Source of the DNA: Raillietiella orientalis
Taxonomy: Eukaryota
DNA length: 64,000 bases
Direction of reading: 5' to 3'
Assembly: GCA_036172245.1 (NCBI GenBank)
Contig: JAYWIR010000006.1
Location: forward strand, 2,108,001-2,172,000
Below the pieces are notes generated by a model, which worked only from the letters and a program-made list of their open reading frames with translations, made no database searches and had not been told where the DNA came from. This document shows, piece after piece, positions 6,516 to 39,552 of this stretch. The translations under genes were made by a program, and so were the position numbers. The stretch's first letter is position 1. The number at the start of each line of letters is the position of its first letter.

Positions 6516-6523
6516 TCCTTGGT

Positions 6524-7570: not shown

Positions 7571-7589
7571 CCCTCTTGGCGCTTAAAGT

Positions 7590-8560: not shown

Positions 8561-8599
8561 AACTTCACCTGTTGGGGGCCGGAAAAGGTTCGAAGGCCA

Positions 8600-17500: not shown

Positions 17501-19399
17501 GATACCGTTCAGGAATGCCCTAGCTTGAAAGAAAAGCAAGTCGGAAAACAGGAGTGCTCAGGAAAGGAAGTCCGTGTTGCGCTGGTGTGGAGCGTTGCGC
17601 GGAGGAGGTTGTGTCTCCGTATCCTCAGCGAGAAAGGAAACTCATCTTCCACATAGCGGTTCCTGATTCAGTTCCCTCTGGGAAACTCGTCATTCCATGA
17701 TTGCCGCATCCCTACTGAACTGTGTCAGACCTCTGGTCACTTCCAATCATTAGTGGAGTCTTATGGAGATGAAGTCAAGGCATGATTCCTAGGCGCAGGA
17801 AACGACTCCCTGGTCTCAAACCAACTCCGTAGTCGCTTGGTTGCTCCTATCTTGGGTTTCGGTGAACAACGAATAGTATACAACAGAAAACTTTTGTCAC
17901 TGGGTCACCTTTCTTCCATCTAATAGCAGAGTGATCCCAGGAGCTCGCCAATGCTTTGTAGCTCGGTCGCACCTGGAAATTTATCTACAGAAGAACAGAA
18001 AACAGCAGCCGAAGAAGCAACAATTCCAGACAGATAGACATCCACGCAAGATTCTAAGGTGCACAGATGGTCGCGCAGAAGGAAGGAACAGTAGATGGAC
18101 GGAAGGACTGAAAAAAATGTATACATGGTTGTTGGGTCATATTATAGAGGAAGCTTCAACCGGGTGCCACAGTCCTTCAAATCCTTAGGCGTTGCGAAAA
18201 ACATGCAGGAGAACCCTTGTCGTCGGTGAGATTTTTCCAGTACCAGGTCTAAAGCTCCCCAGTTCTGGCTCTTTACTTCCCTCAGGCTTGCTACCGTGTT
18301 GCCGAAAGCGCAGCACAGCATCGCCACCACCGCCGGCCGTGGAGAGCTCTTGGAGTAAGAACAGACCAAGCAGGGATAGCAGTTGACGGAGAGTGGGCTG
18401 CAGCTAGTCTCTCCCGTACCAGAAAGAGAGTTCCTCTAACAAGAGGTTCGGGGTCGTTTCGACCCTACGAGGAACAACTCTCAAAAGTCCACTGGCAGCA
18501 CGGCTTATTATGTGGGGATCTCTAGTGCAAAAACAGCGTCTTAATCTTCTGGGAAGGAAAAAATAGCAGAGATTCAGATGGATTTCGCGGTCCACCAATT
18601 CTTTTACAGGTAGCTCCTAAAGGGCCGCCCGGCGCTCTGAACGCCGGAAATGCACACTCATACGATGTTAGGAAACAGAGGTACTGCAATCCGAGAGCTA
18701 CATTTGCTATCTTCCTTATCCTGTTCGGTTTCCACGAAAACAATCAAAAAATATTTTTTCTTCGGAGCACCAGGTTTGGGGTCAGCGTTTGCTGTTAAAC
18801 TGTTGCTAACAAGCGGATAACAGGCTCGTGAGGAGGAAAGTTCTCCTCACCTACTGGTCCGGGGATGATTTCAGTTTGTCTTCTATGCCCTGAAGTCTTC
18901 ACCTTCTGTCAGCTTCCACTCCCCCTTCTCCTTCCTATCCCTTGCCTGCCCTCGATGTTCTCGGACCCTCGTTTCATGCTCATCATCCTTCCCGACCTTG
19001 CACTTCCAGACGAAGCTCCCATGAACTTCGAAGGTCTAAGTGACAAGGATCTCGTTCCTCAGACACTGCCCTCCCTCTAGAGATTTCTGAAAGTAGAAAG
19101 ACCTCACCCCTCGTGAGATGGATTTTCGCGCTCTCCTACCGGAAGTATACCCCCTCCCACATCGCTTCCATGCGCGCCCTTGCCTCTCAAGGAAACTCTC
19201 CAGCGACAAGGTCCTGGACCATGGGCGACCTCGCTTCCTAAGAAGTATAGAAGCCGTGCGCCCTCTCCACTCAGGTGAAAAGAGGAAGAAATGGGTTGTA
19301 TTTTAGCGTATGAAGCGACCTGCGAGATTGAGAAATTTCTAGCTCCACACCCTCGTTCTCCATCCTCCTCTTCTCGTTACACCCAAGGACTCTGATCAG

Positions 19400-22300
19400 G
19401 GATCACAGGGAAGGGAGGAGGGGGGGAATTGTCAGGATTCGCCAAGAAGACCTCGGGACCTCGTGCTTCTCTACTGGAGCCGCCCACCCTGCCGCCGGCG
19501 CACGGAGCCCCCATGCACCACAGCGAGAAACTCCGCCACGCACTCGCGGAGACGATGATGCCCAAGGAAAGTATCCTCCGCGCAGTCGTGGCCAACCCTT
19601 GCGCAAGCGCTTCTGGGACGAACCAGTGTGCGTCGGACTTCTGGACCCGCATCTCAGGGGCGCTCTTAACTCCCCAGCAGTGCCCCTCCATGACGTGATC
19701 CGAGGAATTCGGGACCGTGAGCTGACTCCTGACTGGCCACCTTCTGCCACCCGAAGGAAGCAACAGAACAGGATCCAAGAAGCAAGAAGGGCGTAGCTGC
19801 CATCCAGAGCAGCCGTTCGCGGTAACCGCGGCTTTCGGTTGCACGCAACGTGAAGCCAACTGGACCAAACTGAGAAGCAGACAAAAAGGCGCCTCATTTC
19901 GAGTGGGGATGTGGTGGCTCTTCATTTCTTCCCTCCTTGCCGTCCCCTGACTGAGAGCAGATCTGTGCTCGTGTCAGAAGGAACGCCTTAGTTCCTTGCA
20001 GCGCCATCGGAGGACGAGGTGCCGGGCACCGGCCCGGGTGACCACGGCAGCAACATGCAGCGAGTTCATCGCTAACGGAGGGTCCGGAGCACGGGCTGGT
20101 ATGCCGACCCGAGCTGCCGAGGTTTCCATCCTCCATGCACTCGACTACCCAATCAGAGGACGAGTTTTTTGAATTCGAGAAACAAAGGAAACGGTGAGCA
20201 CCTCTCTAGGTGAAACTCTTCCTGTTTTTCGGTGCTCCTCCCTTTTCTGGTCCTCCTGTTCTCGCCTCTCAGAGCCCCTTCTCTGCTTCTGTGATTCCCA
20301 GGTGCCTGGGAATACGCCCCTATTGCCTTCGGTCCGGTCTCGCGCACGTTAGCATCTCGAGTGTTGAGCCGATTCTTCATCTTGAGATCTGGCCAGAGAA
20401 AGAAAAACGAGCAAGGAAGTAGTTCACTTGAGTCCGGATGCCCTCTCACCTCGAGATTTCAGTCGTTCTCTTATTTCCTCTCTCCTGATGACCATTGGCT
20501 ATCCACCTACCTCGATTTTTTTTGCTGTCCGTCTTTTTGGTGGCTTTTGATCCCGTTTGAGCTCCGGGAGGAAGACGAATGCAAGCCAGAAAAATTGTCT
20601 GGTGCTTTAGGAGGCATCTGTCAGATCCGATTCTTCCCCTCTGTTTCTTCCTTCGTTCCTACAGCCACTCTTGCTTGCCCGGATTCTGCCACTCGCTCGA
20701 TGGTTCCACGGTCCAACGGAATCGCTTCCGGGTAGGGAACCTCCAGATGCGGCCAAAGTGGTGGACCCAAGGTATTGCATCGTGGTTGACTCAGAGTCAG
20801 TGGTTTCATTAGTATCCTGAGTAGTGGAGCTTTCAGCCATTGTCCGCGAATGTGGTCTCAGCATTCTCTTCTGAAAGGAGCAAGCTCCTTTATCAGTTGA
20901 CCTTATGGACGAAACTTCGTGGGAGGCCAGTAGAGGTCTAGGTAGAAGGATAGCAGTTAAGGTGAGAGAAACTGGGTGCGTCTTGCTCGCAATGTTTCAA
21001 GGATACATATCACCCAGTCTTTTTTTTTCTATTCAGAATGGGTGGACGTATGTGTGGCTCACGCGACGATCCACTGAATTTTTTTTGGCTTCTTTTCTGT
21101 ATTCGCTGAGTTCCTTTCAGCATTCTTTTTTTTGGAATTGCTCGTGTCAACGGCCGTATGGTTGCGGTCTCTGCGTGTGGTACCAAGCGTTGCAGGTTCG
21201 AATCCACACATGGAGGATCGACGCCGAGAAACGGATGAGTGCGTCATGGGTGTCGAGTTCCTCTCGCAGGACGGCGTTGACTGGCTCACGGGCTTCGATC
21301 GCGACATCGGTGGGATCCGGAAGCCGGGTGCCCCATCGACTGGCCTCCGGGATTAAAAGTTGACCCTCCGGGATCCTTCCAGGAATCAAGGAGCCGGTTC
21401 CCTCCAAGGTTCCCCTCCGGTTGTGAAAATGGAGCCGTACCATGGAGCCGGTTGATACCACCATCGGAGGGTTGCCTCTCCAGAGGACAAGAAGCACCCT
21501 GATCCCTTGGGAGAGAGCCCCTCAGAGAAATTGAGATCTTTTCAAGGGAGGAGGAAAGAAGGAGGGGTTCCCTTGCGGGTTCCCTTCGGAGACAACCAGG
21601 CTAGAAGAAAACAGTTGGCACGTGGACGAAGGTGAACGATGTGAACGAGCCGAGCTCCGAAGAATGGAACTGCCTGCGACTCGGCATCTGTGCCAGCTAC
21701 TCGCTGCAGAAGATCCTCGTGAATCCCAGCATGAGCGCATGGGCGGAGACGACCTCCCCCGCTGCAACGATGCCCTTTCTGAGGAGGGCACCTGGCAGCA
21801 GCCAACCGCTGCGGTGAGAAGTCTCCTGCGAGATCGCTGGCAGGTGGAAGCTGATGAGTACATAGACCATAGGTCAGCTGACGGATTCTGCTACCCTGAT
21901 TGCCCTTCCGCGGGGACTACAGCGCTGGGGCAAGCTGCTCGGCATTCCTAGAGGAGACCTGGAGTGTCCCCCAGTGCTCAAGGACAGCAGCGTTCCCCAG
22001 ATCAAGCCCAGAAGCGGAAGAAGTTCTCACTACTGCTTCTGCACTGAGGTCTTCTCTGCAACTCTCGTTGACACCACCGGCCGCTGGGAGGGCGAGTCAG
22101 GATTGTCTCAGATTGTGGGGAACGCGAATCTCCCCTCCCGCACCTGTTCGTGGACTGTGTTACCCTCCGATCCCTTTGGGAACAGTTTCGGAACGACCCT
22201 CCGGATCCCAGTTGGCACCCCTACAGACGTTTTACGGCTCCTCTTTGAGCAGCCAGCCGCAGCCCCAGAAGCGCTTTGCTGCATCCGCGGGATTGCGACG

Positions 22301-22651
22301 GACTGGAGCGAAGCTGAAGGAGGAAGAAACGAGAGGAACGCCGACCAGCTTGCAGTTCGCTTTCTGTGGACTGTTGATCTATTCAGAAGGAACTAATTGG
22401 CATCCTGGAAAGGATGCAGATTCTCTTTAGTGGACTGTGATCTCTCCGTGACCTCCCAAGGATTTTTATTTAGTCTTTATTTTATTTTATTTGTTCTTTT
22501 GTTTTCTCCCATCCCCTCCGCTTATTGATCTGCGTACCGGCAACGCGGCAGGTCACATGTACAAACGCAGTGTGGTAGGACCACATGTCCTACCACGAAA
22601 TACGAGTTTATTCAAAATTTTAATAAACGCCCCTGCGTGTCAGAGTGGAAA
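19400..22651 (+). mobile_element. Degenerate LINE (RT to 3' end)
   Basis: ILRAVVANPCASASG..DFW (KAPGPDG..EF region); conserved block WYQALQVRIHTWRIDAEK (21150-21240); T-rich UTR, motif A at 22525, terminal unit at 22622-22645. Confidence 0.65.
22622..22645 (+). other. LINE 3'-terminal unit with a compensatory pair
   Basis: AATAAA CGC CCCTG CGTGT CAGAG (G-C replaced by T-A). Confidence 0.7.
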
Positions 22652-22659
22652 TCGAGGAC

Positions 22660-23250
22660 TACCACGACGGAGGGTGCCCTTCGGGGCTCCCTCCCAAGCG
22701 TAAGATGAACGGACTCCCTTCTCCGAAGTCCTCCAGGATTCATAGGGTGGTTTCCTTCTGAGGTGTCCCCTAACCTGAAGCGTTACTACACGCACCCTCA
22801 GATGGCATGGAATAGTGTGAAGGGGCCTCCAGACGAACGGCTCTTGAGACGATCTATTGAGGGAGTGGTGCAGGCTTCACGGTATCATGTGTTCAACGCA
22901 TCACATCTGTGGAGCATGAGATGAATTAGACGAACCTATTTTTACATGAGGATGGGAAGGTATAGCGGCATGTGGCATTTTTTTTTTTTGTGTGGCTGCT
23001 GCTAAATGGTGGATGTAGGATGCACGTGGTAAGATTATTGCCGCATTGGTTATGGTAAAACTGGTAGAATCATAGGGTACTAATGAAAAGTTTCTGTGTT
23101 ATTGCCTTGCACGGGATGGATGCAGCAGTGAAGACTGCGCTCATGGATCCACGTGTTTATTTAGAAGCGAAAAATGTATGCCGTCTATCGACTCTAGCTG
23201 AAGCACCGTTACCATAAATGGAAGGATTCCTGCGATGGAAGCATCACCGT
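22660..23250 (+). mobile_element. Composite LINE fragment with a zf-RVT relic
   Basis: 22720-22850 aligns by eye with 34020-34150 and the reverse complement of 31250-31320. 22875-23080 reads ..RHVAFFFFVWLLLNGG.. and is the inverted homologue of 24965-25170. Confidence 0.6.
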
Positions 23251-24287
23251 TACCATGAAGAATATGTGGCTTTCATGCTAATGGTCCCGTGCCCCTTTTA
23301 TGGCTTGTCTCCTCGAGCCGCCCACCACAATCTCATAGTGTTCTCTCTGCCTACCGATGAGATCAGTAACTCCGCTATCTAAAAGTCACTGATCACCACT
23401 CACCGGTGTGCTTCGTCGTTTCCCCTCCTTCCTTTGGCGCTTCTGTTGCGCTCAGTTCACAATAAAAATATTTTCCATTCCCAACGGGCACGCATCACTT
23501 TTCTGGTTCATTCGGCCACACACGGCTTTTCTTTAAATCGATATCGTAAAGATCCTTTCCATCCGTCAAATGAGTCATCGTTTTCAAATAAGGAAGAATG
23601 CTGTTCCACTATTGACCGCTTCACATCATCAACAAGTCACCATGAGCACTTAAAACTGCGCTGTTAACGTGACAGAAATTGACCCCCCTATTTATCATTT
23701 CTCTCTCACCATCCTCCATTGTCCTTATCGTACCAACTGCCAACTGATCATCCCAATGACTGCTGTTGTCACACTTGGACCGATTATGTCCTCAATAATA
23801 GTTCCGTCTTGAATTTTTAATGCTTACTAAGTTGTGATCCTGCGAATCATAGCTTACCCATAATTCTCACAGCTACTATGAGTAACTTCCACAGTACACT
23901 CACCCGCATGGATACGAACAAAACCCACCTCGCCATCCATCCACTGGATTCACTGGTATGTAGAATCCTGCCCCATAACACCGTTCCGTATCGCATACAC
24001 TCCGTGACGACACCTCCTCAGCCCTTGTGATGCTCAGATTGATGGGCACACTGCTCCTTCGAGGATCCATGCTTATGCGAACATCCCTAGGGCTGCTACT
24101 CACTACCTAGGAGTTGTCGTAATGGGGACTTACAAACGTATCCCTCCGCGGAAGACCCTTTTGAGTATGACCCACCCTCACCACTGCCATTTCACCAATC
24201 TTGACACTAGCAGTGTATTAAAAGGTGCCCCCTCCCTGATACTTTTCGATCGAAACTTCAACTCGTGATCCAATGCCACAGGAGGAG

Positions 24288-24804
24288 TTCGAACCCGGTT
24301 ACGCCGGGACGTTTATTAAAAAAAAATAAATAAACTACAAGTTAGAGGGAAAGAGTATGCCCTCAGAAAAACAAAAAAAAGCCAAAGATAAAAAAAGGAG
24401 TTCATCAAGGATGACCACCGGCACGCAGGCTGGTTTCTGAAAATTAGGGAACAGATGGAGAGGACAATGAATAAATTAAAAAAAAAAGGGGAGGGCGGGG
24501 ACAGGTTTGGTTTAAGACGTTCCTTTCCTTCTAGAAGCGACTCTGGATAGTGGCGAGATCTCCCTGGCGACTTCTTCCGGCAGGTGAGACCACCTTTCGG
24601 CTGCTCTCAAGAGGGCTGTTGCCATGCTGGTGGATTCTCTTCGCCGCGAACTTGCTTCTAGCACATGGCGGACTGTCGCTATGGCGCGGATGCAACATCT
24701 CGTTGAGACCACGGCGCCCTTTTCCAGTCCTCCTCACGTGAAGAAGCGCCGCAGCAGGTTGGTGGCAGTGTTTTGGGATTAGCGGAGGGCCTAAGCAAAT
24801 CTCC
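24288..24804 (-). mobile_element. 5'-truncated LINE insertion (517 bp) with a perfect 13-bp TSD
   Basis: GCCACAGGAGGAG at 24275-24287 and 24805-24817. Contains motif A (24418-24433) and the terminal unit (24294-24317). Its composition differs from the G-poor host. Confidence 0.85.
24294..24317 (-). other. LINE 3'-terminal unit
   Basis: AATAAA CGT CCCGG CGTAA CCGGG. Confidence 0.85.
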
Positions 24805-24817
24805 GCCACAGGAGGAG

Positions 24818-27800
24818 GAAATCTGATCGTTCAATTCGATTCTTCCGTCACTCTTAGATTTGCATTTTAATCTTGCTAGCTCTGGGCATTACCTCTCACA
24901 TCACCTTACTCGGTACAGGGGAGGAAGGGAGGTAATTGGCAGTCTAGACATGATCTGTGCCACAATCGCCCTATAATGTACCAATGTTATCACAACCAAT
25001 GCACCAGTAATCTTACCGCGTGCATCCTACAGCCACCACATAACAGCATCCAAAAAAAAAAAAATGCCACATGCCGCTATACCTTACCACTCTCACGTAA
25101 AAATGGATTCTTCCAATTCATCTCATGCTTCACAGACGTGATGCATTAAACACATGATACCGTGAAGTCTCATAACCTTGAAGTCTGTGCCACACCCTCG
25201 AGAAGCGCCGTTCCCCTGGCGGCTCACGAGCTCGCCACGTATTTGGTGTAGGTCTGGACACAAGCTTGCTTTACCTCAGCCACCACCATGATCCATCCTT
25301 ACAGGAATCAGAATCTCCAGATTGCTGATCTAGCGCTTTCCCATAATACATCCCTCCTCCACTGAACCGCAATATCTGCAATATCAACTGACGGGGCTTG
25401 TTACTTCGTAGCACACTTTCCCTGTTACTTATTCATAGGCGCCGCCACCAATTATAGCCGGTTTCTTTCATCGGTGCCCTTTAATAACAGGAACCTTCCT
25501 CGGCTACCCTATCTTAGATACGCAGTTCTTCCCACATTAACTGGAGCGTATGCACCTTCTTCCCATAATGCTTCCTGACAGCATACCACGGCGCTTTTCA
25601 TATTACCTTGACATCTTCAGCCTATGAAACCTAATCTCAACCTCCGCGCCCTTTCTTTCCCTAATCTCCGCGTTTCCACTCATTTTCATCATCTAGAAAG
25701 ATTAATTGATAAACAATCCATTATCGATCACCTTTCAACGTAGGATTCACTAGAATGAGCACGATTCCCTTTAGATCAATCCATTCGTCCTCAGATCTTC
25801 CAATATGGCGGAATCAATGGACTGTCCATACATAACATTCAGTAATATTCCCAATAACATTTAAAAGGTCGTACTCTCTCACAGCAACCGCAACCACCAC
25901 CATCCCGTCCACTTCTCGTCCTACATCACACATCGTGCACTACAAACTCACACAGGCATCTCCTGTTAATTAATAGTAATCACCCCATGGAATTTCATTT
26001 GAACATCTACCCTTTCATTTATCCCATTATCGATCATAATTCCCTCCCTCCACATTCTATGTCTTCTTGACAGAAGCGCCTCTCCCTTGCTCCATTACCA
26101 CGACCATCCATTGCCAACCAACGATTCTGATCTCGTGAATACCTGTGCTTCAAAAACACCAAATTGGATTCATTTATAACCAGCCATTAATACTAATCCC
26201 CGCCTCCTCTTTACAGACAAGCATCTAATCATACCATTCAAAAACTACAGACCGCACAATCATTGCATCATCAGACGTCCTTCTGTCTTAATGACCCTCC
26301 CCCCCTTCCTTAGGAGATGGAAACCCTAGATACGTCGTCGGAATCACGGATAAACAAATGGAATTAAATTCGGACATCTTTTTCAGGTATAAAAAGTACG
26401 TTGTTGCCAAGCCGCAATTGCAAGAGTAAATCGGAGGACCGGAACGCCATTCGGTGCCACAGGTTAACACCCACATACTAACTTCCCCTCATGTTAGTAC
26501 TCAGAACCATTATGGAGCTACGAAATCATCCTTTCACGATCACACATCCACTTTTCTATTCGTTCCATTGCGGCTAAACACTCCGTGATACAAACCATAT
26601 CTGCAAACCTACACGAAAAGCAAGATGACCACGACAAACCTCGTCTCCTTCCCATCTGGATCCCTGAATCTTTTCCCTCTGCCCCATCTTACCGCTTCAT
26701 TAACATTATGTCTATCTCGGCCCCACCGGGGCACATCCCTACTGACTATTCCCCGTCACACGTAATGAGGATTGCCAGAAATCATTAGGAACAACCAAAA
26801 AGATAGAAGAAGCATTCTGGTCGATTGAAGGTGCCTCTCACTCCACGCAACCATCCCTCATCTCACTAATCCATCATGTCTCACTCTATGGCTGATGCAT
26901 CAGCGTACTTGTCCTTTTCTCTCGCGCGAACCACCACCTCTCCGGTTACCAAAAAAAGCTCTTCTCCACGTGAGAAAATCTACAGCACTTCTCAGCCTAC
27001 CTGAGACCGAAAGGAATCCTTACGACTTCATCACCATTCTTCCCTGTTCTCGGGGCTACAGGACTGCTAAGCCACTCTGAGACCGCGACTCACAACTGCC
27101 ATCACCTTCGGGCGCATTCTAAGCATCCTACCTACATGCGCCTTCATCCTAATCCTTACCATTCTGGAGATAGTCGTGAATCCAAGGTCTCAGAGCTGTT
27201 ACCTGATGCGCTCTTTACATCGAGAGCGACTCGAAAATGAACTCATTAACCACTTCCCGTTATCCACATGGACCCTGACCCATTCTCCCATCCTTATTGC
27301 CGCCTGTCCCTGAGCTGCCTCATACGTAACAAATAGTCTCCTCTCTCACTGCTGATCCTACCTGCAATAGGCTTCTCTGTGAGGAAAGATCGCGAACGCA
27401 GGTTCCTCATTCCTAGACGTCCTTTCCAAGGCAACAGCAAGCACATCCGGATAATACACATCCGCAATAATAATATGCATTCTCTTAGAGTTCTCCATCA
27501 TTTTTCCATGCCAGACGGGAAACCAGTCCACAACTCAACTTCTCTTCTGCCTCCTTCCAGCATCTACGAACCGTCTTCCAATCGTCTTCCAAAGAATTAC
27601 CACGTCTTAACACGCCTTTGTTTCTTAGTTCAGACATTACAGCAACCTCATCTCCGTACTGCTTCTCAAAAAACACACACACAAAAAAAATAAAGCTTCC
27701 TCAGTCGCCTCCACTATCACAGTCATCGTAGGTCTTCCATTCCCCGCCATTCGACCGTAGCACGGCTTCAAAGTCGAATTCCCCACTCCAGATTCCTTTT

Positions 27801-30000
27801 CGGCTTTATATTATCCTTTCTAGAGGCCCCCATGGGACCTCTTGTTATCACTAGCCTTACTAAGAAGAACATAGGACGTGCTTGTATATTTGCATGGATA
27901 CTTGTGGGATTGGCGTGAGACACGGGAGGCAGGGTTTTAGGTAGGGGATTGTAATTGTAGGAAGTGGGGATAGGGAAGAAGTCTCAAAGATGCCAGGCCC
28001 TGGACTGCGGGAAGAAGGGCGATTTTAGTTCGAATATGAGGAGGGCTTTGGGAAGAGCAGGAAGAGACCGTTTCGGAAATCGGTTCGAAAAAATCGGCAC
28101 TTCCACCTACCTCTCCATCCTTAGAAGAAGAAAGCAGCGTTCTAACCCAGAAGTCTGTAGACTTCTTCTTCTCTAGGGTGCATCTACGACACAAGAATCG
28201 TTCGAAAACCCCTTCAGGCATTAATGACTCTCCTTACATGTAGACGGACTCGTTCCCCGACAAATGAAAGGCCTGTGCAACGGCCCGGCCTTCTGCTAAG
28301 TTCTTGACTGCCCAACTCCATGTTGGCCAAAGAACCAGTCGTGCATCAAGCCGCCGAGATGATGCAGGCCACAGCCTTACATCGTTTAAAAGGAGCCAAG
28401 TTTCCACAGGGTCGGATCACATGCCCGAAATTCTCCGGCTCCGAGTCTGCCCGCTAACGCAGTGGAACTTCACCCCTCCTGTGGTCACCCCTCACTCGTG
28501 GAGGTCATCCGGGGAGAAAGCGAGGCTCTGGATGCTCGCCTTACGAAAAGATCCACGAGCAATCGCAGCTCGAAACTCCAGAAGGAGCCCCAACTCCTTC
28601 AGATAACTGGGGTTGCGTGCGTGTCTCCTTCGAATGTCACCTGCCCACGACCACTTTTCTCCCAGATAGCTTATTTTCGGCCGCAACTTCCACCTGAGCC
28701 GCTGTCAACCGCCTCCAAAAGTCCACGGCGGACCAGGAACCGAAGCGGGTAGTGCACCTCTGTCGAACACTCACCACTCCCAACGCGAAAAATCTTGGAA
28801 AGGACAACGGCTACGCACAGGCAGTTATTGGAAGCCACGTGAAGGGCAAACCGATGCACTTGACCCTGTCCAATTCGACGAAACGCATCCGAATAGCGAG
28901 GACTTTACGCAAGTTTTCCCGATTTCCCGTCTTACTGAGCGCCCGTCCAGCTAGGGCGTTTCAGCGTTCCCACTGCGCTCAGCTCAGTGTCGGTCCCCAC
29001 GGATTTCTGCATCGCTGCCGGTTCTGCACTCAAGAGGTGCTCAGCAGAAGTGGCAAAGCCACCTCCTCCAGAGAGCACCGAGAGTGCCTTCCGTCGGACG
29101 GATTCCACGCAGCGCTCTACAAAGTCCCGAAAGGCCCGGTAGAGCCCGTGGCAGCAATGGGAATCCTGAAATCAGAAAGTTCGGGTGCACTGGGAATCTT
29201 CCCACGTGCGGATATCAGCTGTCGATACCTGCTTCCCCCTTTTTTCTGTGCCTTCCCCTGAGCTTTGTCTGTTTCTCTGGGCCTCGGACTTCCCTCGATG
29301 AGACCGCGCGCCTACGAGGACTGGAAACTGCTGGAGCAGTTTCCGGTCCTCGTAGGCGTCTGCCTTAGGGATGGGGGACGGGAGTTTAATGCGCGTCATG
29401 CCGGATTCTGATGAATGAGCTCTTTCCTTGTTGAAGACTTGAGTTTGGACTTGAGGGCGTACAAGTACACTTCGAGGAAGGAGCTATTTTAATACGAACG
29501 TGTTTGCACTACTCCTTAGGTGCTTGCCAACATCAAAACACCAATAGCATCCGATGCGACGAATCCCTTCCGAGGAGCTCTCAGAATCCAGTAGCACCAG
29601 CAGTTCTCGAGTCCTTGTCCGAAACCACTGTTTCTTGTAAGGCAACCCTTGTCCTCCGGCATGAATTGTCTTTTTCGAGATCAGTTTAACTTTTCAAACA
29701 TCTTTTAGTGCCTCTTCAGCATCTGCCTCCCCTTCTCCGGATCCTCAAAGCACTTTTCCCTTCTAGGATTTCTCCCACAACTTCTAAAACGTTCTAATGT
29801 TCAAAGCAAGGGACGCGCCTTCTCAACGTGGGACAGCGGTCGATCACTCGCAGCGCCTAATCTGTGAAACCGTCTAAACGGACTCTCACACGCCGTTGAT
29901 CACCACGTGTTTGAAAGACCAGGGCTCGTCTTCATCAGCGTTCCCATCGCTACAGGCTGTTAGCAGGTTCATCCAATTACCCCGCTTCACTGCTCCGGGC
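24818..30000 (-). mobile_element. Long degenerate LINE: ORF1 (DUF4283-like and CCHC), EN, RT, zf-RVT; possibly two copies joined near 27850
   Basis: EPWSFKHVV...VRLDG (~29870-29930); CYWCFDVGKH (~29515-29550); WSWAGDIR (GDFN, ~28640); RVALDVKSA (~27220); LRGVRG..FYLF (~26830); FADM (~26600); TTYLGFP (~26330); CLSVKRRRGLV; FFWMLL..CGTDHV*TANYL (zf). Confidence 0.7.
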
Positions 30001-30369: not shown

Positions 30370-32100
30370 CTCGAATGACGCAAGCTCGTTTATTTTATCG
30401 TGGTTTTTAATTAGCAAGCTTTTATTGATGTTGTTCAAGGACACAGGATTCCGCCTTCTGTGCGCGACAGGCATCATCATCGTTGACAACGGCAGGAGCA
30501 TAGCGCCGTCCGCTAATCATTTGATCATTAGCTCCAGGCAGATGGACCCAGATCAGCGCGCTGGGATCCCGGAGATCAGAGTTCCGAGTCGTAACGGGAC
30601 GGCGGTTCTTAAGGACTCCATCGGAAACTGGCATTCCTACGGGATGGCTGTCAGTTTGAACGAGACTTGCGAGTTCATCTTTTCCAGGATGCCAGCGAGG
30701 GCCACGGGCTCAGGGAAAGCTGGAGACGAGGAGAGGAGGCTACTCGCGGCTGATGGGGGGGGAGGGCGCTGGATGCTGGCAGAGGAGAGTCTGGACCGGT
30801 CGGATGGAAACGCGGGCAAAGCAAATGCCACGAGACTACGGGGACTATGCCGCTCCTCCGACTTCCTGTGAGAGAACTCTTGGACTCCCGATTATGGTTG
30901 AAATAATCGACATCCGTTTCCTACTTTTCGTCCAAGAGAGCCGGAGATGTGATGGTTGAAGGGAAGAGGTCCAAATCCGTGTGCGCTGGGCGAGGAAGAA
31001 GTTCAAACTTGCGACTCGGTGCGCAAGAGGGACATCTGCTTCAGCTGACCTGCACGGCCGACACTGCTGAGCAAAGCGGAAGAAGCACCTTTTGGGAAAC
31101 GGAACTGCTGCGTTCGCTGCGCGACTTCCGCTCTCTCTCCGAACACTGCCCAATGTCTTTGTCGCTCCTTCCACATTCCTTTTTTCTTTCTTTCCGGTTC
31201 GCCAATTGCTGAGGAACCGTTCGTTTCCTTAGGGACTTTCTCCTTAACACCGTCCACGCCACCCGAGGCTGCGTGTAACTCTCCAAGTCATAGGGGGACC
31301 ACCCTATGAATCCAGGAAGGCTATGGAGGGAATCCGTTCCTCTCACGCTTGGTAGCTAGCCCGAAGGGAACCTTCTCCCTTGTTGTCTCCGAAGTGAACC
31401 CCTAAGGGAACCTCTTCCTTGTTCTCCTGGGGGAAACCATCCGCTTTATAGGGGACATTCCTCGTTTCCTCTCCGTAGGGAACCTGGAAAGGATCCGCTC
31501 CTTATTTCCTCCTCTGAAGAGAACCCCGGAGGGACGCTTCCCCATTTCTCGGGCACTTCCCGAAGCGAGCAGCGCGCTTCTCACACTCTGGAGAGGCAAC
31601 CCACGAGGGGGCATCAACCAGCTCCATGGCACGGCTCCATTTGCTCCTGCACAACTGGAGGCTCTTTGATTTCCGGAAGAACCCGGGGGGTTGACCTCCA
31701 ATCCCAGCCAGTCAATACGGGCATCCGGTTTCCGTCTGCCTCCACCAGCGCCGCGCCCGAAGCCCGTGGACCAGCCAGCGCTATCCTGCGGGGGAGACTC
31801 GAGACCCACGATGCACCCACTTCTCGGCGTCCATCCTCCACTCAGGGATTCGAATCCGCAACGCTTGGCACACCACTCTCAGAGACTGCAGATACACGGC
31901 CGCGTTGGCGTCCTTGTAGCTACGGTCCAGGGAGAGCTGTATGGCAGAGGCTTCCCCTGTTCTGGTGGTGATTGAGGTATTTCCAAAACAACGTTTGCGA
32001 GAAGGAGGGTGCACTTTGCACGGTGTTTGGTGGCGGAGGAGGCGTGGAATCCATTGCTCTCCTCCGGCTGGATCGACGCTCCTCGCCTTATCTCGCTCCC
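30370..32100 (-). mobile_element. Degenerate LINE 3' half
   Basis: CQALRIRIPEWRMDAEKWVHRG and LPGFIGWSPYDLESYTQPRVAW blocks are shared with the copies at 21150 and 33570-34100; weak AATAAACG end at ~30370-30395. Confidence 0.55.
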
Positions 32101-32459
32101 TGCCGTCCATCGAAACGGTGCCCGTTCCCCATTCATCGCGATAACCGTCAGGAAAGCCGCTCCATGATGCATCGTTTAGTCTCGGTCTTGACGTGGCTGC
32201 GTAGCCACCTTGAACTCACTTTTGATATATTTTTGAGACACCGTGAATGATCAGTTACGTGGACCCGTGGCCGAGGTGTCCGACTTTCCAGCGATGGTGA
32301 AAACACCGATGCGCCTGCCCTCCTGCCTCTTCTTGATCAGCCACGTTGACTACTGCTGCCTGACAGCCTCCTACGCCTTCGTCTGTTGAACTTTTAACAC
32401 CCATTCGTGCCAGCCATTGTGCGACCCTTGTGTTTCGCTCCGTACTGCGCTGAGTTTTG

Positions 32460-32462
<3 letters not shown>

Positions 32463-32503
<41 letters not shown>

Positions 32504-32527
32504 ATTTCTGTCCCCCCCCCCCCCCCC
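32463..32527. repeat. (TG)19 microsatellite followed by a C16 run
   Basis: TG repeat at 32463-32500; poly-C at 32512-32527. Confidence 0.95.
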
Positions 32528-32699
32528 ACGCCTTCCCCTTCCCCTTTCTTTCTGGCTAGAAAAAAAATTGATCGCCCTCACACACCGACTGCGCCGATTC
32601 GTTTTCGAAATGCGCTGTCGTTTGACGACGGCACAATCGGCAAGACGGATGATGACTGCACTCGACCTACTGAGCCCTGCCGGCGTCGTATCGTAAAGG

Positions 32700-34517
32700 A
32701 ACTTGTCCTGACGACGCTGTAGGCTCCAAGACCTTGGGAGAGTGCCCCGAACAGGCAGTGTTGGTCGCACGCAAATCACCTGCACTTTTCCATGTCCTAT
32801 CTACCTCTTTTGGAGCACGAAGGATGGTGATTGCTCAGGGTGGATCGGGAAGTGCAGGCGATCTGCTCGCACCGCTGACCAACACTCCCTGTTCGGGGCA
32901 CGCTCCCAAGGTCTTCGAGCCTACAGCGTCGTCAGGTTGCAGTATCGTTGGGGCGAGTCCCTTACGGTACGACGCCAGCAGACCATCCTTCGTGCTCCGT
33001 AATAGATAGGTAGGACAGGGAAGAGTGACGTTCCCTTGCTAGGAGACAGTTTCCTTGGCTCCTGCCTTTTTTCATCTCTTCTTCGCGTGCTACGCACTTG
33101 TTTGCTTGATGCCTGAAACTCTTGGTCTTCGTGAGCGGCACGGATTCTGCGCCGTCATACGGAAGGATTGAAATTGGCTAAGAGTGACTTCTGCTTGCTC
33201 TGCGGCCGCTCCGACGCATCGCAGCAGAGCAGCAGGAAAACTCTGGGCAGCACGCGGCTGCCCTGAGGCCTCCGATTGGGCAGAGTGAGCATCACCAGCT
33301 CAAGTTCCGTCTGTGTGCGACCTCTCCAGATCAATCAGGTTGCACGTCGAGGTACAGCCGGTCGAACGCTGGCGTTCCGGAGAACTTTTTCAGCACAGAC
33401 TCCTGGTTTCCGGGGTAGCTGCGTCCCCAAATTGTTCAGGGCGAGGGGCGATTGATCGCTTTCGCACCTGCTGTTGGATTGCAGTGCCCTCGAGGAACTT
33501 TGGCGCAGGCTGGCTTCTGCATTCTTGCACGGTGAGGACACTGCCAGAGACATGCTGATAAGCCCACGTTGGCGGCCCTGTGGCTGCGGCCTCCGCTCAT
33601 GGCACCAAGCGTTGCGGGTTCGAATCTCCACGTAGAGCATCGATGCCGAGAAGTGGGTGCTTCGTGGGTTGCGAGTCCCCCCGCAGGATGACGCTATGTG
33701 GTCCATGGACTTCGGGGGCGAAGCTGGTAGAAGCCGCAAATCCCGGATGTCCCTGTTGACTGGCCGGGATTGGAAGTCGACCCTCCCGGGTCTTTCCAGG
33801 AATCCAGGGAGCAGTTCCTTTCGGGGTTGCACTCCGGTTGCGATAGTGGACCCGTTTCCCTTCTCAGAGGAGAACCTCCATCGCGTACCATGGAACTGAT
33901 ATGCCCTCAGGGGTTGCCTCTCCAGAGTGTAAGAAGACACTCTCTTCCTTCAGGGCTCCCTTCGGAGGTTACCAAGGAGAAGGTTCCCAAGCGTAAGAGG
34001 AACGGACTACTTCCTCTGGAGCCCTTTTGGATCCATAGGGTGATGCTCTCTGGGTTGCCCCCTATAACTTGAAGGATCACACGTACCCTCGGGTGGCGTG
34101 GACAGCCTTAAAGAACTTCATGAGTTCCCAGACGAACGGTTCTTGAGTACCTAGCGCACCAGAAAAAGGAAAAGGCCTGCTGTGACGGTTCTTCTCAAGA
34201 GGAACTGCGACAGGTGTTGCGAACGCGCCATCGTCACAGCCCAGTACTTACTGGAGTGTCGTGAGCAGCGATGGGAGGTAATCAGAATGAACCACATATG
34301 TGTGGGGATCGCTGCGAGGTGGCCTCACCTACAGGAAGAAGTCAAGGCGGAGGTCGCCGGTATTCCGCACTGTTTCTGAGCAGGAAGGAGCTTCAGATGC
34401 CAAAGATCTCCATCCTCCCTTTTTTTTTTCCGGTTGTTTTTCTATCGTCCCCCTTTCTTTCACTCCGTACTGCCTCAGCGAACGACCCGCGTGTTGGTGG
34501 ACCCTCCAAATGAACTT
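32700..34517 (+). mobile_element. Degenerate LINE (RT end, post-RT, zf, first half of 3' UTR); continues at 35734-35836
   Basis: PCPIYLF, HSLFGAR (FADD position), WHQALRVRIS block, NCDRCCE...QYLLEC...W finger (ORF 34182..34379); motif A at 34482-34497. Confidence 0.65.
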
Positions 34518-35733
34518 AAAGGTCAAGCGAGCCACCGGCTACGCTAAACTGTCTCCGTTCCTGGTGCGACGGCGCTGACGCAACGTGTCCAGCTGCGGAC
34601 TGGAGCTCCGGCAAGTGGCCACTCTGACCAGGACCAACAACTAGGTCTTCTGCTGGCCCGCGAACGGTAGTCCCTTGTTGCAGGAAACCGTTCGCACATG
34701 GGTCAGGAACGACGAAGCGAGCCCGGTGATGCGGCAGAGACTGCTGCACTCCTACAACAACCGCTCGCTTTAGGACGTTATCGTGCAGCCCACCACGTGT
34801 GCGTGGGCGCAAAGAACCTCCCTAGCCGCGGCACTGCCCTCCTTCATGGAGCACCTGAGCAGTACCAGCCGGCCAGATGGGAGGTCCGATGTGAGATCGG
34901 TGGAGGAGCGAAGGAATTAGGTGGTTGACACACGGACAAGCTTACGGGCGCTGCGACCCCGAGTGCCCCACCGAAAGAACTATTCCGCTGAGGCGAGCTG
35001 CTGGGAGTCATACATGAGGGCCTCAAGTGGCCCTCTGTGCTGGAGAACAGCGGGGTCCTCCCCCTGAAGTGGCAGGAGTCGGCACTTCTGCTGTTGCACT
35101 GAGGCCTCCCGTGCAATGTCCGCCGCTCCCACTAGCCCGGTCCCACCTGCAAAAGTTGGGGTCCATAGCCCCCTAATTTTTGCAGGTGTAAAGAACGGGA
35201 ATCCTTCCCTCACTTGCTTGTAGACTGTGTTGCCCTCCGGTTCCTGTGGTTACGTTACGCAACGTCCCTTGGTCCATCGACGGACGACCCCAGAGACGTG
35301 ATGAAGCTCCTCTTCGTGTGCAATGTCCTTCCGACATCTCCAGCAGCTCGTTGCTGCTTACGTGGGAACGTGGGATCTGGAGCTACACGAGAGGAAGACG
35401 GCACCATAGGGACTCCATCTGCTTCGCCCTGCGCTTGCTGCGGACGGCAGCAAGATAACCCCACCTGGGGCGTACTCAGAAGGAACTTGTCGGCATCCCA
35501 AAAAGGGTGCTGAGGATGCTCTCCAGAGGACAAGGATCCATTCCCGTGTCTCCCAGAGTTTTTGTTTTATTATTGATTTTTGCTTACTTTCATTTTTGCT
35601 TGCTCTTTCCCTCTCCGCTGCAGGGGAGAACCTTGCCGACCTGCGTGCTGGTAACTCTGCAGGTTCCAAGCATTTTCGGATAAACATATGTTTATTTTCT
35701 ATAACAAACGTCCCGGAGTAACCGGTCGAAAAA
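34518..35733 (+). mobile_element. 5'-truncated LINE nested in the 3' UTR of the previous copy
   Basis: From 35061: PLKWQESALLLLH*GLPCNVRRSH*...CRCKERESFPHLLVDC..LW. Motif A at 35636, terminal unit at 35703-35726. Degenerate TSD ccaaatgaactt (34506-34517) / ccgtatgagctt (35734-35745). Confidence 0.7.
35703..35726 (+). other. LINE 3'-terminal unit
   Basis: AACAAA CGT CCCGG AGTAA CCGGT. Confidence 0.8.
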
Positions 35734-35806
35734 CCGTATGAGCTTTTTTTCTTTCCATTTTTATTTCGGGAGCTGCGTTCCCAACTCCTGTGTTTATTTT
35801 TTATAA

Positions 35807-35830
35807 AATCAAGACCCCTGCACTCCCGGG
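35807..35830 (+). other. LINE 3'-terminal unit (degenerate)
   Basis: AATCAA GAC CCCTG CACTC CCGGG, followed by AGAAAA. Confidence 0.55.
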
Positions 35831-35839
35831 AGAAAATTC

Positions 35840-36030
35840 GTGCGAGACCCCTTCAGATCAATTAGGCTGCACGTCGAAGTACAGCCGGGAGAAAGTGTTG
35901 GCATTCCGGAGACCCACGGGCGGCACGAGGAACGGAGGCCGCCGCGTACCCTAGACCCGCTTGGGCGAGGGCGATGAAGCACGGAACAGGACGGATCTCT
36001 CCTGCAAACCTTCTTCATAGCTGCGCTACG
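35840..36030 (+). mobile_element. LINE post-RT fragment
   Basis: cagatcaattaggctgcacgtcgaagtacagccgg matches 33327-33361 (cagatcaatcaggttgcacgtcgaggtacagccgg). Confidence 0.55.
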
Positions 36031-37174
36031 TCTTCACAGCTTTCTCGCGCGAGAATGGCTTTCATCTGCGGCACCTCCCGTAGGCCCTCCAGCAGCCGGC
36101 TGTAATGCAGCATCCCCCACGGAGACGTACACTGCTAATTCGGGTCTCGATAAACTTGGCCAGGATAACCTAGCCGAGCTCGCGTCGCGTGGCTCTACGT
36201 GGCGCAGCTAGGCTTCGCAGTCGAACGGTCCATCCGATGCGTCTCCGAGATCCCCAGATAGCCGAAGCGATCAAACGTGTAATAAGCGTCCAGAGACGAA
36301 AACCGAAGTCGCCGATGATAAATTAGGGACCACCCAATGAACGACGTCTCCTTCCGTCACGACCTCGGCGGCGACTGCACCTGCTACGGCGAGTCCCGGG
36401 TTCAGTAAACAAGCGGACAAACAACGCCAGAGGGAGAAAGGAGCAAGGAGATGGAATGCCTCTGCAAAAAACTGCGAGCTCGAGTTCGCAGGAGTTAACC
36501 ACGATCAAGGCTCTGGAACCTGCAACAAAAAAAGAAAAGAAAAGAAGGAAAGAAAAGAAACCTGCCAACGCAACCAGGACGGGGCGAGTAGTGGTGCATC
36601 ATCTCGGTCTCAGAAGCAGACATTTGAACAAATCGTGACTTCCGTGAGGCGAGTCATCCAGCCAAAACACCTTGCTGCGCGCATCGGTGCATGTCGTTAC
36701 GTTCGCGGTCCACGTCAGCGGCATGAGTCCACGTACGCCACAGGCAAGTTAGGCAGCGAATCAGAAATGCGACACTGTAAGGGTGTACCATAGCATAACA
36801 CATGCGTTTATTAATCGTATATGCTGTGTACTTTTGCAAATGTAAGGTCATACATCTTCCATGAGCTGTGCACCGGTACATGCCATACTTTGATGCCGTA
36901 GTGTTCCGTACATAAACAGGGGACACACGTGCTCACGCCTTTCTGTTTTCCAGCTGTACGTACCGAGCAAGTGCACGTCTGCACGCGGGAGAACTGTCGC
37001 AGTTCCCGCGCTCCTGAACAAAGGCTTTCGGGTGCAACGCAAGCGCGGAGGAGGTGGCTGGAGAAGATTCCGCCGCAGAGCTAAAACAGGCAGGCCAGGG
37101 GAACGGGCAATAGCCCCAAGCGTTCCGGGAGTCCATCAGGAGCTATCTCGGATCCCAAGGTCGAGTGCCCGAAG

Positions 37175-39350
37175 TTTGTTACCCGGTCACTCCGGGACGT
37201 TTATTTTATAAAAAAAAATACACCAGTTGGGAGCTGGAATGTTCTCAATGTTCTCCTACGACAACAAAAAGAAAGACAAAGGTCCAACGGCACGCAGGCC
37301 GGGATAATGAACAGTTCGGAAGAGGGGAGGGACAAGCGAACAGCAAAAATAAATTAAATTGGGTGGGATGGGACAGGGAGCTTTGGATTGGGGACAGGGA
37401 TGAAAACGAAAAAGCACCGGGAAAATCGCGGAGCGAAAAGGGATACGAAAGGAAAATAAATAAATAAAAGGAGCAGGAGATCAGAGTCACCGGAATCGGC
37501 CGTTCCTAACGATCTACCAACGGATACTGTATGCCGATGATCTCCGCCTTAGTCTCTTCCAGGTGGGGCCACCTTGCAACCTCCCTAATGTAGACGGCTG
37601 CCATGGTGGTGACCTTTCGCTACGCGGTGGTCTCCAGCACATGTCGGACCATGACGATGGAACGAATGCAACCCCATGGTTGCGATCACGGTGCCAGTCG
37701 AGAGTCCTCCTGGTGCCAAGAACCGTCTCAGCACATCTCAAGCGGTGCAGGAGTGCTGCTGCCAGCCACCGCCACAGTTCTTGGAGCACACCGCAGTCTA
37801 AAAGTCCTCGCACAATTAGAGGGAACAACCCCTGTGGAAACTCGGAGCCACCGCTCGTTGCAGTGGAATGCCCAGTGCAAGAAGAGCAGCACGTCCTGCC
37901 TCCAACTAAGCGGAAACACTGGTACGTTCACGCAGTTTGGCGGAACTACAAGTTCTTCGAGAGTGTCCAAAGTTGTCCGCGGAATGCCATTCTCCACCGG
38001 CTTCCGGCAGCGACCAGTTTGGTGAACATCACGGTTGGCTTGGGCCTTCAGGAGTCCTGAGTAGCGTTCTGTTGCAACTGGAGCTCGACCCTCTCGAAGG
38101 AAAGGCTGCTTCTCATGCTCATGCTCCTTCCAGTGGCAAGGTAGGAATGTTCCGGGTTTTCACCGCCAGTCCAGGGATCACGCATTCCGCCCTCTCGGGA
38201 GCAGCCAGGCGCTCACAAAAGCGCGGTCCCAAAGCTCCTGGTTCGTTGAGGAAGTTCCGTTCTTCAGGTCTTGCGGCGCCGGAGCACCGTGGAAGAAAGA
38301 AGCAGAGAGGCATCGCAGACGAGAGAATTGAGCGCTGACGCCACGTGCTCGGAAGGCATTACCGGAGGTTCCTTCGGGAACGCCTTCGATCTCTCAGAAT
38401 CTCGAGATCAGAAGATCTCTCGCCTCAGATCTCTCAGAAGGACTCAGAATCGGTCGTCTTGTTGGCGCTCCGCGACACCGTCGAGGACCACCACCAACCA
38501 TCCGTCACGAGGTCTCCCGACTCCTGTAATGACCCGTTCCTCCGCCGTGGAGGAACCCATGTCAGAGATCCGGAAATCCCTCGTGGAAGAATCCTTAATG
38601 AGCCTTTCAGACGAGAAGAGCAACGAAGTTCTCTCCTCTAAAGATGACGAAACATGCTGGCAGCAAGAGCACTCATCGCATTCAAAGGCATCTACAGGGC
38701 AAGAAGCGGCGAAAGAGCACCCGAAGTCAATGCTTGCCACAAAGCTTGAGGGAAGGAGCTACTGGAACCGCGTCTACCCTTCCTCTTTGCTCCTTCTTCC
38801 TCTGTTCCCTTCAGCCTCTTCCACGGCTGGAACGACCGCGCACCACTCCGAAGAAAACTCTTTCCCTTCTCTTCAGTAGCTGGTCTCCCTGGAGCGACCC
38901 CAAAAGTTTTCTCGGTGAGGCGCTCCATCGCCTTTCTCGTGAACCTCCTATTGACGCAGCGGTCACGGTCCGGCGCCTCATAAGCTCTGGGCACCGCCTT
39001 TCGGAAGGTTATGGATCTTCCGGAGAGGTCCAGAAGCTGCACGAAGCTGAGCGCCCGCGATCTGTCTCCTTTCCTGGCCCTTCTGGAGGGAGATCGTAAC
39101 CTGGCACGCCTCTGACGGCGGAAACTCAGGAACCGAAGAGGATTTTTCTCCTTCAGGATTCCACAGCTTCCCTTTCCTCCGCTCTTGCCCGCGATCCCTC
39201 CCGCGTTTAAGGAGACAGGCGGAGTCCTCCTGCAGGAAGCTCACACTCCCCGGAAGCATCAGAGGAAGGCTGCTGCCACATCCTGGAAAAGGGAAGGGGA
39301 TGATGCGCCAGGAACCCAGAGTCCACCAGGAAGAGCGTTCCCGACACCGG
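37175..39350 (-). mobile_element. Degenerate LINE (RT, zf-RVT, complete 3' end)
   Basis: LLDLSGRS, VNRRFT...GVAPGRP (GVRQG.P), SFAAS; EELVVPP..PLSWRQDVLLFLHWAFHCNER..LLDCGVLQELW; motif A at 37287-37302, terminal unit at 37182-37205. Confidence 0.75.
37182..37205 (-). other. LINE 3'-terminal unit
   Basis: AATAAA CGT CCCGG AGTGA CCGGG. Confidence 0.85.
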
Positions 39351-39379
39351 TTCGCGCCACTGACTTTTCTGAGCCCTCC

Positions 39380-39552
39380 TCCAATTCACCTTTCTTTTTC
39401 TCTCCTGCCTCTTTTCCTTCTCTCCCTCTTCCTCTATGCTTCCTGCTTTCCTCCTCCTCCTCCTCCTCTCTTTTTCCTACTTTCCTTCTCTTCCTCTCTC
39501 TCCTCTTCTTCTTCCTCCTCCTCCCCTTTTCTTCCTCTTTTTCCTCCTCCCT
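39380..39552. repeat. Polypyrimidine low-complexity tract
   Basis: Almost pure C/T (tcc, ttc units). Confidence 0.85.

Follow-up and report, generated by a model that had tools for sequence, protein, structure and literature searches.

We analysed a 64,000-nt stretch of Raillietiella orientalis DNA (assembly GCA_036172245.1, contig JAYWIR010000006.1, positions 2,108,001 to 2,172,000), hereafter the window, for a 24-nt unit in which an AATAAA hexamer is followed by a GC-rich hairpin. A first-pass annotation, made from the letters alone, had placed this unit at the 3' ends of at least nine diverged copies of a LINE (long interspersed nuclear element). The unit is a real, well-delimited LINE 3' module, and we are confident that it marks the 3' terminus of the elements that carry it. 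The reading that we favour, with a probability of about 0.6, is that it combines a poly(A) signal and a hairpin recognised by the reverse transcriptase (RT) of a stringent-type LINE in one 3' cis module. The window itself is best explained as holding several diverged subfamilies of old, mostly 5'-truncated LINEs, nested in one another.

Copies of the unit in the window

The consensus of the unit, AATAAACGYCCCGGMGTRACCGGG, has a 5-bp GC palindrome as its stem and NGTRA as its loop, and 9 sites in the window match it with at most 6 mismatches. The same scan gave 7 sites with at most 4 mismatches, and five mononucleotide shuffles had none at either threshold. When the degenerate consensus of the first-pass annotation was used instead, 5 sites had at most 3 mismatches, compared with 0 in 100 dinucleotide-preserving shuffles. 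The threshold of 7 mismatches is uninformative, because its 12 sites do not stand clearly above the 0 to 5 found in mononucleotide shuffles. The nine significant sites, named here and below by their first position and strand, are 6530(-), 22622(+), 24294(-), 35703(+), 37182(-), 58246(-), 59025(-), 60331(+), and 62069(-).

A covariance model was built from eight copies and run unfiltered across the window. It recovered these eight at E values of 6e-9 to 1e-5 and gave additional weak matches at 17950-18015(-) (E 0.13), 35777-35842(+) (E 0.67), 30399-30457(-) (E 4.2), 8514-8567(+) (E 5.7), and 58234-58268(-) (E 7.1). Homology added three copies to those of the motif scan, namely 17962(-), 35807(+), and a variant end at about 8536(+), which brings the total to about twelve in 64 kb. 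The copies are as follows.

24294-24317, minus strand: motif copy, 0 mismatches; best covariance-model match (E 6e-9)
24294(-), parts, minus strand: AATAAA at 24312-24317; CGT; stem CCCGG at 24304-24308; loop CGTAA; stem CCGGG at 24294-24298
37182-37205, minus strand: motif copy, 0 mismatches; its 3' untranslated region (UTR) is homologous to those of 24294(-) and 60331(+)
35703-35726, plus strand: motif copy, 3' end of nested insert B; 2 mismatches
35807-35830, plus strand: decayed motif copy, 3' end of LINE copy E; 8 mismatches; identified by homology
22622-22645, plus strand: motif copy, 3' end of nested insert A; 4 mismatches; a G-C pair changed to T-A, plus one C.A mismatch
59025-59048, minus strand: motif copy, 3' end of nested insert C; 3 mismatches
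60331-60354, plus strand: motif copy, 3' end of a longer plus-strand copy divided by insert C; 4 mismatches
6530-6553, minus strand: motif copy, 3 mismatches; the family profile matches the terminal ~55 nt only
62069-62092, minus strand: motif copy, 6 mismatches; hexamer AATGGA
58246-58269, minus strand: motif copy, paralogue of 62069(-); 6 mismatches; hexamer CATGGA; absent from the first-pass list
17962-17985, minus strand: probable decayed motif copy, GATAAATTTCCAGGTGCGACCGAG; 7 mismatches, covariance-model E 0.13; absent from the first-pass list
8514-8567, plus strand: variant 3' end of a LINE copy with its UTR at 7951-8502, identified with the UTR profile; absent from the first-pass list

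The 24294(-) copy reads AATAAACGTCCCGGCGTAACCGGG and agrees with the first-pass consensus at every position. Eight of the nine copies named by that annotation were borne out by the motif alone, these being all the sites significant in our scan except 58246(-). The ninth, 35807(+), with its 8 mismatches and its covariance-model E value of 0.67, is nonetheless genuine, because it aligns with the 37182(-) copy over the entire terminal region and because the UTR DNA profile matches first 34173-34516 (profile positions 96-451) and then 35750-35839 (471-565), on the two sides of another insertion. The statement that the copies align without indels was upheld for every one of them within the 24 nt. 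The exchange of a G-C pair for T-A in the stem of 22622(+) is likewise real, with the addition that the same stem has a C.A mismatch.

The variant end near 8536(+) departs from the rest in its order, having ATTAAA, then a perfect 8-bp palindrome, CAGGTGAA-AAAC-TTCACCTG, and then GCCGGAAAAGG. The palindrome consists of the old 5' arm and loop with their exact complement, and beside it stand what appear to be the original 3' arm (GCCGG) and an A run. An insertion of about 15 nt that lengthened the hairpin may account for it, and on that ground we dropped the palindrome as a case of covariation.

Nested insertions and the identity of the elements

Three of the copies end inserts that are flanked by target-site duplications.

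21601-22651, plus strand: insert A, 1051 nt, tail TGGAAA, nested in repeat Y
21586-21600 and 22652-22666: duplication of insert A, TCGGAGACAACCAGG / TCGAGGACTACCACG, 15 nt, 11/15 identical
34518-35733, plus strand: insert B, 1216 nt, a 5'-truncated LINE fragment, tail CGAAAAA, nested in LINE copy E
34506-34517 and 35734-35745: duplication of insert B, CCAAATGAACTT / CCGTATGAGCTT, 12 nt, 9/12 identical
59019-59937, minus strand: insert C, 919 nt, tail TGTGGA, nested in the 60331(+) copy
59004-59018 and 59938-59952: duplication of insert C, GGCAGGCTCCGTGAT / GGCAGACTCCGTGAT, 15 nt, 14/15 identical

The borders of the inserts can be read to a base or two, because uninterrupted versions of the host repeats are also present in the window. 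Repeat Y, the host of insert A, consists of 21151-21600 and 22652-22823 and runs uninterrupted at 33573-34147(+) and 31902-31242(-). LINE copy E (34150-34517 and 35746-35839) is divided by insert B, and the 60331(+) element (58672-59018 and 59953-60361) by insert C; the opposite nesting, of 60331(+) in the 59025(-) copy, was rejected. For insert B, local alignment alone had returned only low-complexity matches in place of the duplication. A target-site preference was considered and dropped, the four bases before the duplication being CCCT in A and B and TGTG in C.

In all three inserts the element stops 6 to 7 nt past the hairpin, in a terminal run of 3, 5, and 1 A in A, B, and C, respectively, and the hexamer lies 24 to 25 nt before the element end. 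The 5' ends differ among the inserts, and the other copies retain from about 55 nt to more than 750 nt, so that a common 3' module is combined with variable 5' truncation. The unit is thus the 3'-terminal module of retroposed, 5'-truncated elements, as the three copies with duplications of 12 to 15 nt attest. In the remaining copies, the homology between copies ceases at the hairpin or within about 10 nt of it. The earlier assertion that the unit caps the 3' end is confirmed for the three delimited inserts and is consistent with where homology stops in these other copies, the exception being the pair 58246(-)/62069(-), to which we return below.

Upstream of the UTR, five copies encode the end of an open reading frame (ORF) with the pattern LLxLHWGLxCN...Cx1-3Cx7Hx4C, for example ..CRCKERESFPHLLVDC.. 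in translation. Insert B contains such a cysteine-histidine (CCHC) ORF end (35181-35228) followed by UTR, motif, and tail, insert C contains one at 59542-59592, and a CCHC-domain remnant lies at 37686-38045, upstream of the 37182(-) motif. A profile made from four of the ORF ends found three further fragments in the window, and among the copies compared the amino acid identity of the ORF ends was 29 to 44%. The C terminus of ORF2 in the L1 clade follows the pattern Cx1-3Cx7-8Hx4C, and in our own reading the ORF end here would be the cysteine-histidine end of an L1-type ORF2. L1-clade membership is a candidate label only; the poly(A) tail typical of that clade is not seen in the three delimited inserts (A runs of 3, 5, and 1), where the decay of old tails is possible.

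The elements behave as non-LTR (long terminal repeat) retrotransposons: they have target-site duplications, within the span of several to about 20 bp usual for this class, a fixed 3' end, a CCHC ORF end, and 5' truncation of variable extent. No terminal repeats are present, and AATAAA lies on the sense strand of the elements. The unit could in principle end another kind of mobile element, being the 3' hairpin of a Helitron, the poly(A) hairpin of an LTR R/U5 region, or a DNA transposon's terminal inverted repeat. A GC-rich palindromic stem near the element terminus would suit any of these, as would the three pairs of motifs that face each other at 1.4 to 1.7 kb (22622(+)/24294(-), 35703(+)/37182(-), and 60331(+)/62069(-)). 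Helitrons, however, end in CTRR about 10 to 12 nt after the hairpin and make no target-site duplication, and LTR elements make duplications of 4 to 6 nt. The duplications here are 12 to 15 nt, not 0 or 4 to 6, and the tails TGGAAA, CGAAAAA, and TGTGGA do not read CTRR. Moreover, the facing pairs are homologous on their outer sides and not in the interval between them, the 5' ends vary, and no second LTR or matching terminal repeat was found at the three inserts. We regard an origin from another class of element as scarcely credible.

A SINE-like (short interspersed nuclear element) unit of about 420 nt was also considered and dropped, the 24294(-) and 37182(-) copies reaching further 5' than 60331(+); no SINE-like short unit with the motif as its tail was seen in the window. 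Repeat Y occurs in three copies, about 70% identical. The 33573 copy is preceded by another CCHC-like ORF end (..SLSHLLLDC.. at ~33456), which makes it probable that repeat Y represents the 3' UTR belonging to a second LINE subfamily, and the very weak covariance-model match at 30399-30457(-) may be its end.

Conservation and possible cis function of the module

We determined the conservation of the unit relative to its surroundings. Over nine copies, the mean pairwise identity of the 24 nt was 0.70, compared with 0.26 to 0.33 in the adjoining 24-nt blocks when these were aligned ungapped. With gaps allowed, the 100 nt upstream reached 0.59, compared with 0.56 for random pairs from the window. 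Within the unit, the conservation was 0.85 for the hexamer, 0.82 and 0.87 for the stem arms, and 0.71 for the loop. Between diverged copies, the unit is therefore conserved well above the rest of the UTR. Conservation of the 3' tail between diverged lineages is also what stringent-type recognition leads one to expect, and the figures of 0.70 versus 0.26 to 0.33 agree with it.

Pairs of copies from the same subfamily are about 69 to 70% identical over 430 to 460 nt. Because this equals the identity of the motif, decay after insertion explains the value of 0.70, from which it follows that the similarity of the flanks was lost before insertion and that the source lineages retained the module as their UTRs diverged. 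After insertion, the copies would accordingly have decayed at one rate. Judged from these alignments, the module is probably under constraint, and it is likely that its conservation reflects a cis function in retrotransposition.

The conserved segments extend beyond the 24 nt. GTTTAT, the reverse complement of ATAAAC, lies 13 to 18 nt upstream of the unit in 5 of 11 copies, where 0.27 would be expected (maximum of 3 in 2,000 shuffles). A second box is found farther upstream.

24417-24428, minus strand: second conserved UTR box, CTGCGTGCCGGT

With at most 2 mismatches this box recurs at 22530(+), 35641(+), 37286(-), 58377(-), and 62115(-), always on the strand of a motif copy and 34 to 113 nt upstream of it, the spacing being variable. 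Such placement accounts for 6 of the 11 matches in the window with at most 2 mismatches and for all 3 with at most 1. The box resembles the loop and 3' arm of the hairpin (GCGTGACCGGGT). The UTR itself had been described as T rich, which holds in part: over the 100 nt upstream, the T fraction ranges from 0.26 to 0.57, compared with 0.23 for the window.

The conservation could be only apparent, and the motif functionless, if the copies had been collected by the motif, came from one master ancestor, and had T-rich flanks that align badly. The collection did indeed proceed through the motif, no covariation was found (see below), and the flank identity within subfamilies (~69 to 70%) is close to the mean identity of the motif (0.70). 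Such an account has to face the fact that copies with 29 to 44% identity in their ORF ends and with UTRs at the random level still retain the 24 nt at 0.70, that 5 of 11 copies have GTTTAT where 0.27 would be expected, and that the box CTGCGTGCCGGT is retained at variable distances. We consider it very unlikely.

In the mechanism that we favour, AAUAAA would direct the cleavage and polyadenylation of the element transcript 24 to 25 nt downstream, a position that coincides exactly with the ends of the genomic copies. The GC hairpin (5-bp stem, loop NGURA) would lie between the signal and the cleavage site and would mark the RNA for recognition by the RT-containing protein of the element itself, as in stringent-type recognition. 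The tail's initial few A residues would then be the starting point for reverse transcription, on a nicked target for which T richness is not required. It is probable that AAUAAA acts as a poly(A) signal; that the hairpin is bound by the RT is a more tentative proposal, made by analogy with other LINEs.

The same features could be explained if the module only formed 3' ends, with a relaxed RT that, like that of vertebrate L1, relied on the poly(A) tail. AAUAAA and the hairpin would then together act as an efficient signal for polyadenylation or termination, self-contained and standing in for a downstream element, which a mobile element is unable to bring with it. This would fit the rank of the hexamer (0.85), with the stem arms, as the best-conserved segment and the ending of the copies in A residues 24 to 25 nt past the hexamer. 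The layout, too, is shared by the 3' UTRs of vertebrate L1, in which pyrimidine-rich tracts are followed by AATAAA (PMC5381506). Finally, the copies with a mutated hexamer (AATGGA and CATGGA) are the only ones whose homology continues past the motif, as read-through would give. On the other hand, the terminal A runs are just 1 to 5 nt in the three delimited copies; as old A tails can shrink, this length is weak evidence. At the three target sites, the bottom-strand primers end in ..CCGA, ..TTGG, and ..TGAT, so the nicks are not T rich, and the lack of T runs argues against annealing between poly(A) and oligo(T). The NGTRA loop, the GTTTAT box, and the second UTR box are conserved as well, which exceeds the needs of a poly(A) signal. 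A role restricted to 3'-end formation is, on balance, rather unlikely.

Several observations weigh against the combined signal and recognition hairpin that we prefer. The first concern the stem. Of its 40 cells in the alignment, 32 are paired (80%) with one compensatory cell, and 206 of 500 shuffles of the 3' arm did as well; in a larger alignment, 42 of 55 cells were paired, compared with a shuffle mean of 41.6. The folding z-scores of 8 copies ranged from -1.02 to +1.11, that is, no better than those of shuffled sequences. The claim of a structured 3' signal in the first-pass annotation thus drew no backing from the covariation test, which put pairing at the shuffle expectation, or from the folding energy, which was unexceptional. 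Compensatory changes in the stem, another mark of stringent-type tails, are limited here to the one cell, which lies in the 22622 copy. All the copies are dead and so cannot show selection on the stem; for the same reason, the lack of covariation does not count against the structure either. RNAalifold gave the hairpin as the only consensus helix (-3.56 kcal/mol), and the two best copies fold as an AU stem and a GC hairpin.

A second group concerns the coding capacity. The only Pfam family to match the ORF end, in 1 of 4 aligned copies, was zf-RVT, and this match was below threshold (E 0.057, 14.5 bits with a cut-off of 27.5, profile positions 62-85). Scans for RT and endonuclease domains were negative for the 281 stop-to-stop ORFs of at least 100 amino acids in the window, for 150 of the 162 sense-strand ORFs of 50 to 99 amino acids within 5 kb upstream of motifs, and for the read-through translations of 32001-35302(+), 5001-8002(+), and 38001-41002(-). 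A phmmer search with a clean ORF fragment of 160 amino acids against 1.84 billion representatives returned 0 relatives, and the profile of four ORF ends had 0 matches in PDB. RT-like short patterns (YxDD, QG..SP) stood at the chance level in the window. A homologue search with 59464-60162(-) was also empty; its query was chimaeric, the N-terminal part being the antisense of the flanking 60331(+) copy. Since the truncation of the copies seems to lie 3' of the RT, the absence of an RT is expected and decides nothing.

The sampling also counts on this side: it covered one 64-kb window, and since the copies were collected via the motif, elements lacking it go uncounted, which is an ascertainment bias. 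The last point is the pair 58246(-)/62069(-), in which homology extends beyond the motif, with about 78% identity over ~165 nt and a weaker match to ~230 nt. The shared sequence could be a small segmental duplication, a repeated insertion target, or read-through; the last of these, as 3' transduction, was set aside, the shared unit having neither an A run nor a new signal at its end. The repeat that lies 3' of both mutated-hexamer copies (58091-58254 and 61913-62077) includes a 47-nt block of 100% identity and occurs nowhere else in the window.

A more far-reaching version of the preferred mechanism, which seems to us unlikely, would make these elements a LINE lineage described in no library searched, with a two-hairpin 3' module that couples the choice of the cleavage site to RT recognition. 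An AU stem (GUUUAUU/AAUAAAC) would hold the poly(A) signal and be followed by the GC hairpin with its GNRA-like GURA loop, with a further UTR box, CUGCGUGCCGGU, upstream. Reverse transcription would begin at the cleavage site nearly without a poly(A) tail, and the arrangement, in a GC-rich eukaryote, would be intermediate between stringent and relaxed recognition.

Surrounding sequence and relation to known LINE tails

The 24294(-) LINE fragment is bracketed by a 206-nt inverted repeat (22872-23077 / 24969-25170, 84% identical), whose arms, about 1.9 kb apart, may represent the two termini of a foldback or terminal-inverted-repeat element. Another inverted pair, of 285 nt (4174-4458 / 55654-55941, 77% identical), is unrelated to the LINE module. 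Between 24000 and 28000, C exceeds G (skew of -0.18 to -0.30) and the GC content is 0.47, compared with 0.53 to 0.60 elsewhere in the window; this region includes low-complexity C/T- and C/A-rich sequence. A GA-rich low-complexity tract at 39262-39693 translates as runs of E/K/R/G, and a (TG)n microsatellite lies near 32450-32500. The sole hint of a host gene is an ORF of 111 amino acids at 8896-9228(+), which resembles Peroxin-3 weakly (sub-threshold, E 0.0012); a query of the ESM Atlas with it returned no label finer than Eukaryota. Pfam matches are lacking for every other ORF of at least 100 amino acids in the window, so the window is gene poor or its exons are short. A search for sequencing runs matching 22000-30000 listed none, and no RNA source.

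Rfam returned 0 matches at the gathering score for the whole window and 0 at E values up to 1 for 22400-24800 and 35400-37700. The motif strings were not found in the searchable full-text literature, and the motif pattern had 0 matches in metagenome, genome, and viral contig collections. The type of module is already known from other LINEs, including those of the L1 clade, while this particular sequence is without a match in Rfam, full text, and contig collections. Ancient, diverged LINEs are also on record from the Sarcocystis neurona genome (PMC4337577), with which no link of this window was seen.

CR1 elements end in a hairpin and an octamer microsatellite, without a long A tail. The hairpin near the 3' terminus is common to them and the elements described here, which differ in having no repeated unit after it; we know of no CR1 element with a CCHC ORF2 end. 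L2-clade elements end in short tandem repeats, and to our knowledge an AATAAA hexamer is not a part of their tails. Conserved stem-loop 3' tails recognised by the LINE's own protein are established for the L2, CR1, RTE, Tad1, R2, and R1 clades (PMC4176376, PMC1636434). Among the L2-clade LINEs covered there, eel UnaL2 and zebrafish ZfL2-1 and ZfL2-2 have, as here, a short stem-loop at the extreme 3' end; the tail is bound by the ORF2 protein, which reads stem and loop separately, and is needed for mobility (PMC4176376, PMC1636434). A conserved loop is common to L2-clade tails and to the unit (NGTRA), whose elements would belong to a different clade and are known from sequence.

The first-pass annotation had set stem-loop recognition in L2/CR1 against poly(A) in L1. 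This contrast was drawn too sharply, as stringent L1-clade LINEs with a conserved 3' stem-loop have been described from monocots and a green alga (PMC3472496). In the monocot LINE1-1_ZM lineage and Chlamydomonas L1-1_CR, as here, the last few dozen nucleotides are conserved far above the rest (Ohshima 2012, PMC3472496), the divergence being 0.144 for the conserved 3' end versus 0.570 for the rest of the element. Further likenesses, by description of the tails and not by their sequence, are a putative hairpin, conserved nucleotides in the loop and beside the stem, and a CCHC ORF2 end, which is a candidate one here (PMC3472496). The elements in the window stand apart from them in their A run of 1 to 5 nt, with no SINE partner seen and no covariation. 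The L1 3' UTRs of fish, frog, and lizard have, as here, poly-pyrimidine or T-rich tracts followed by a terminal AATAAA; that study gives them a poly(A) tail and, in the passage on them, describes no terminal hairpin (PMC5381506), whereas here a GC hairpin lies between the hexamer and an end with few A.

The finding opens no new kind of mechanism. As a precise marker of the element end, the module allowed three nested insertions to be placed at base resolution in a region whose coding parts can hardly be read, and repeat annotation of this genome would profit from it. If the favoured reading is true, it adds a LINE with a CCHC-type ORF2 end that uses a specific 3' tail and not a long poly(A) tract, and it is relevant to the question of when relaxed, poly(A)-only recognition arose and how many times it did so (PMC3472496).

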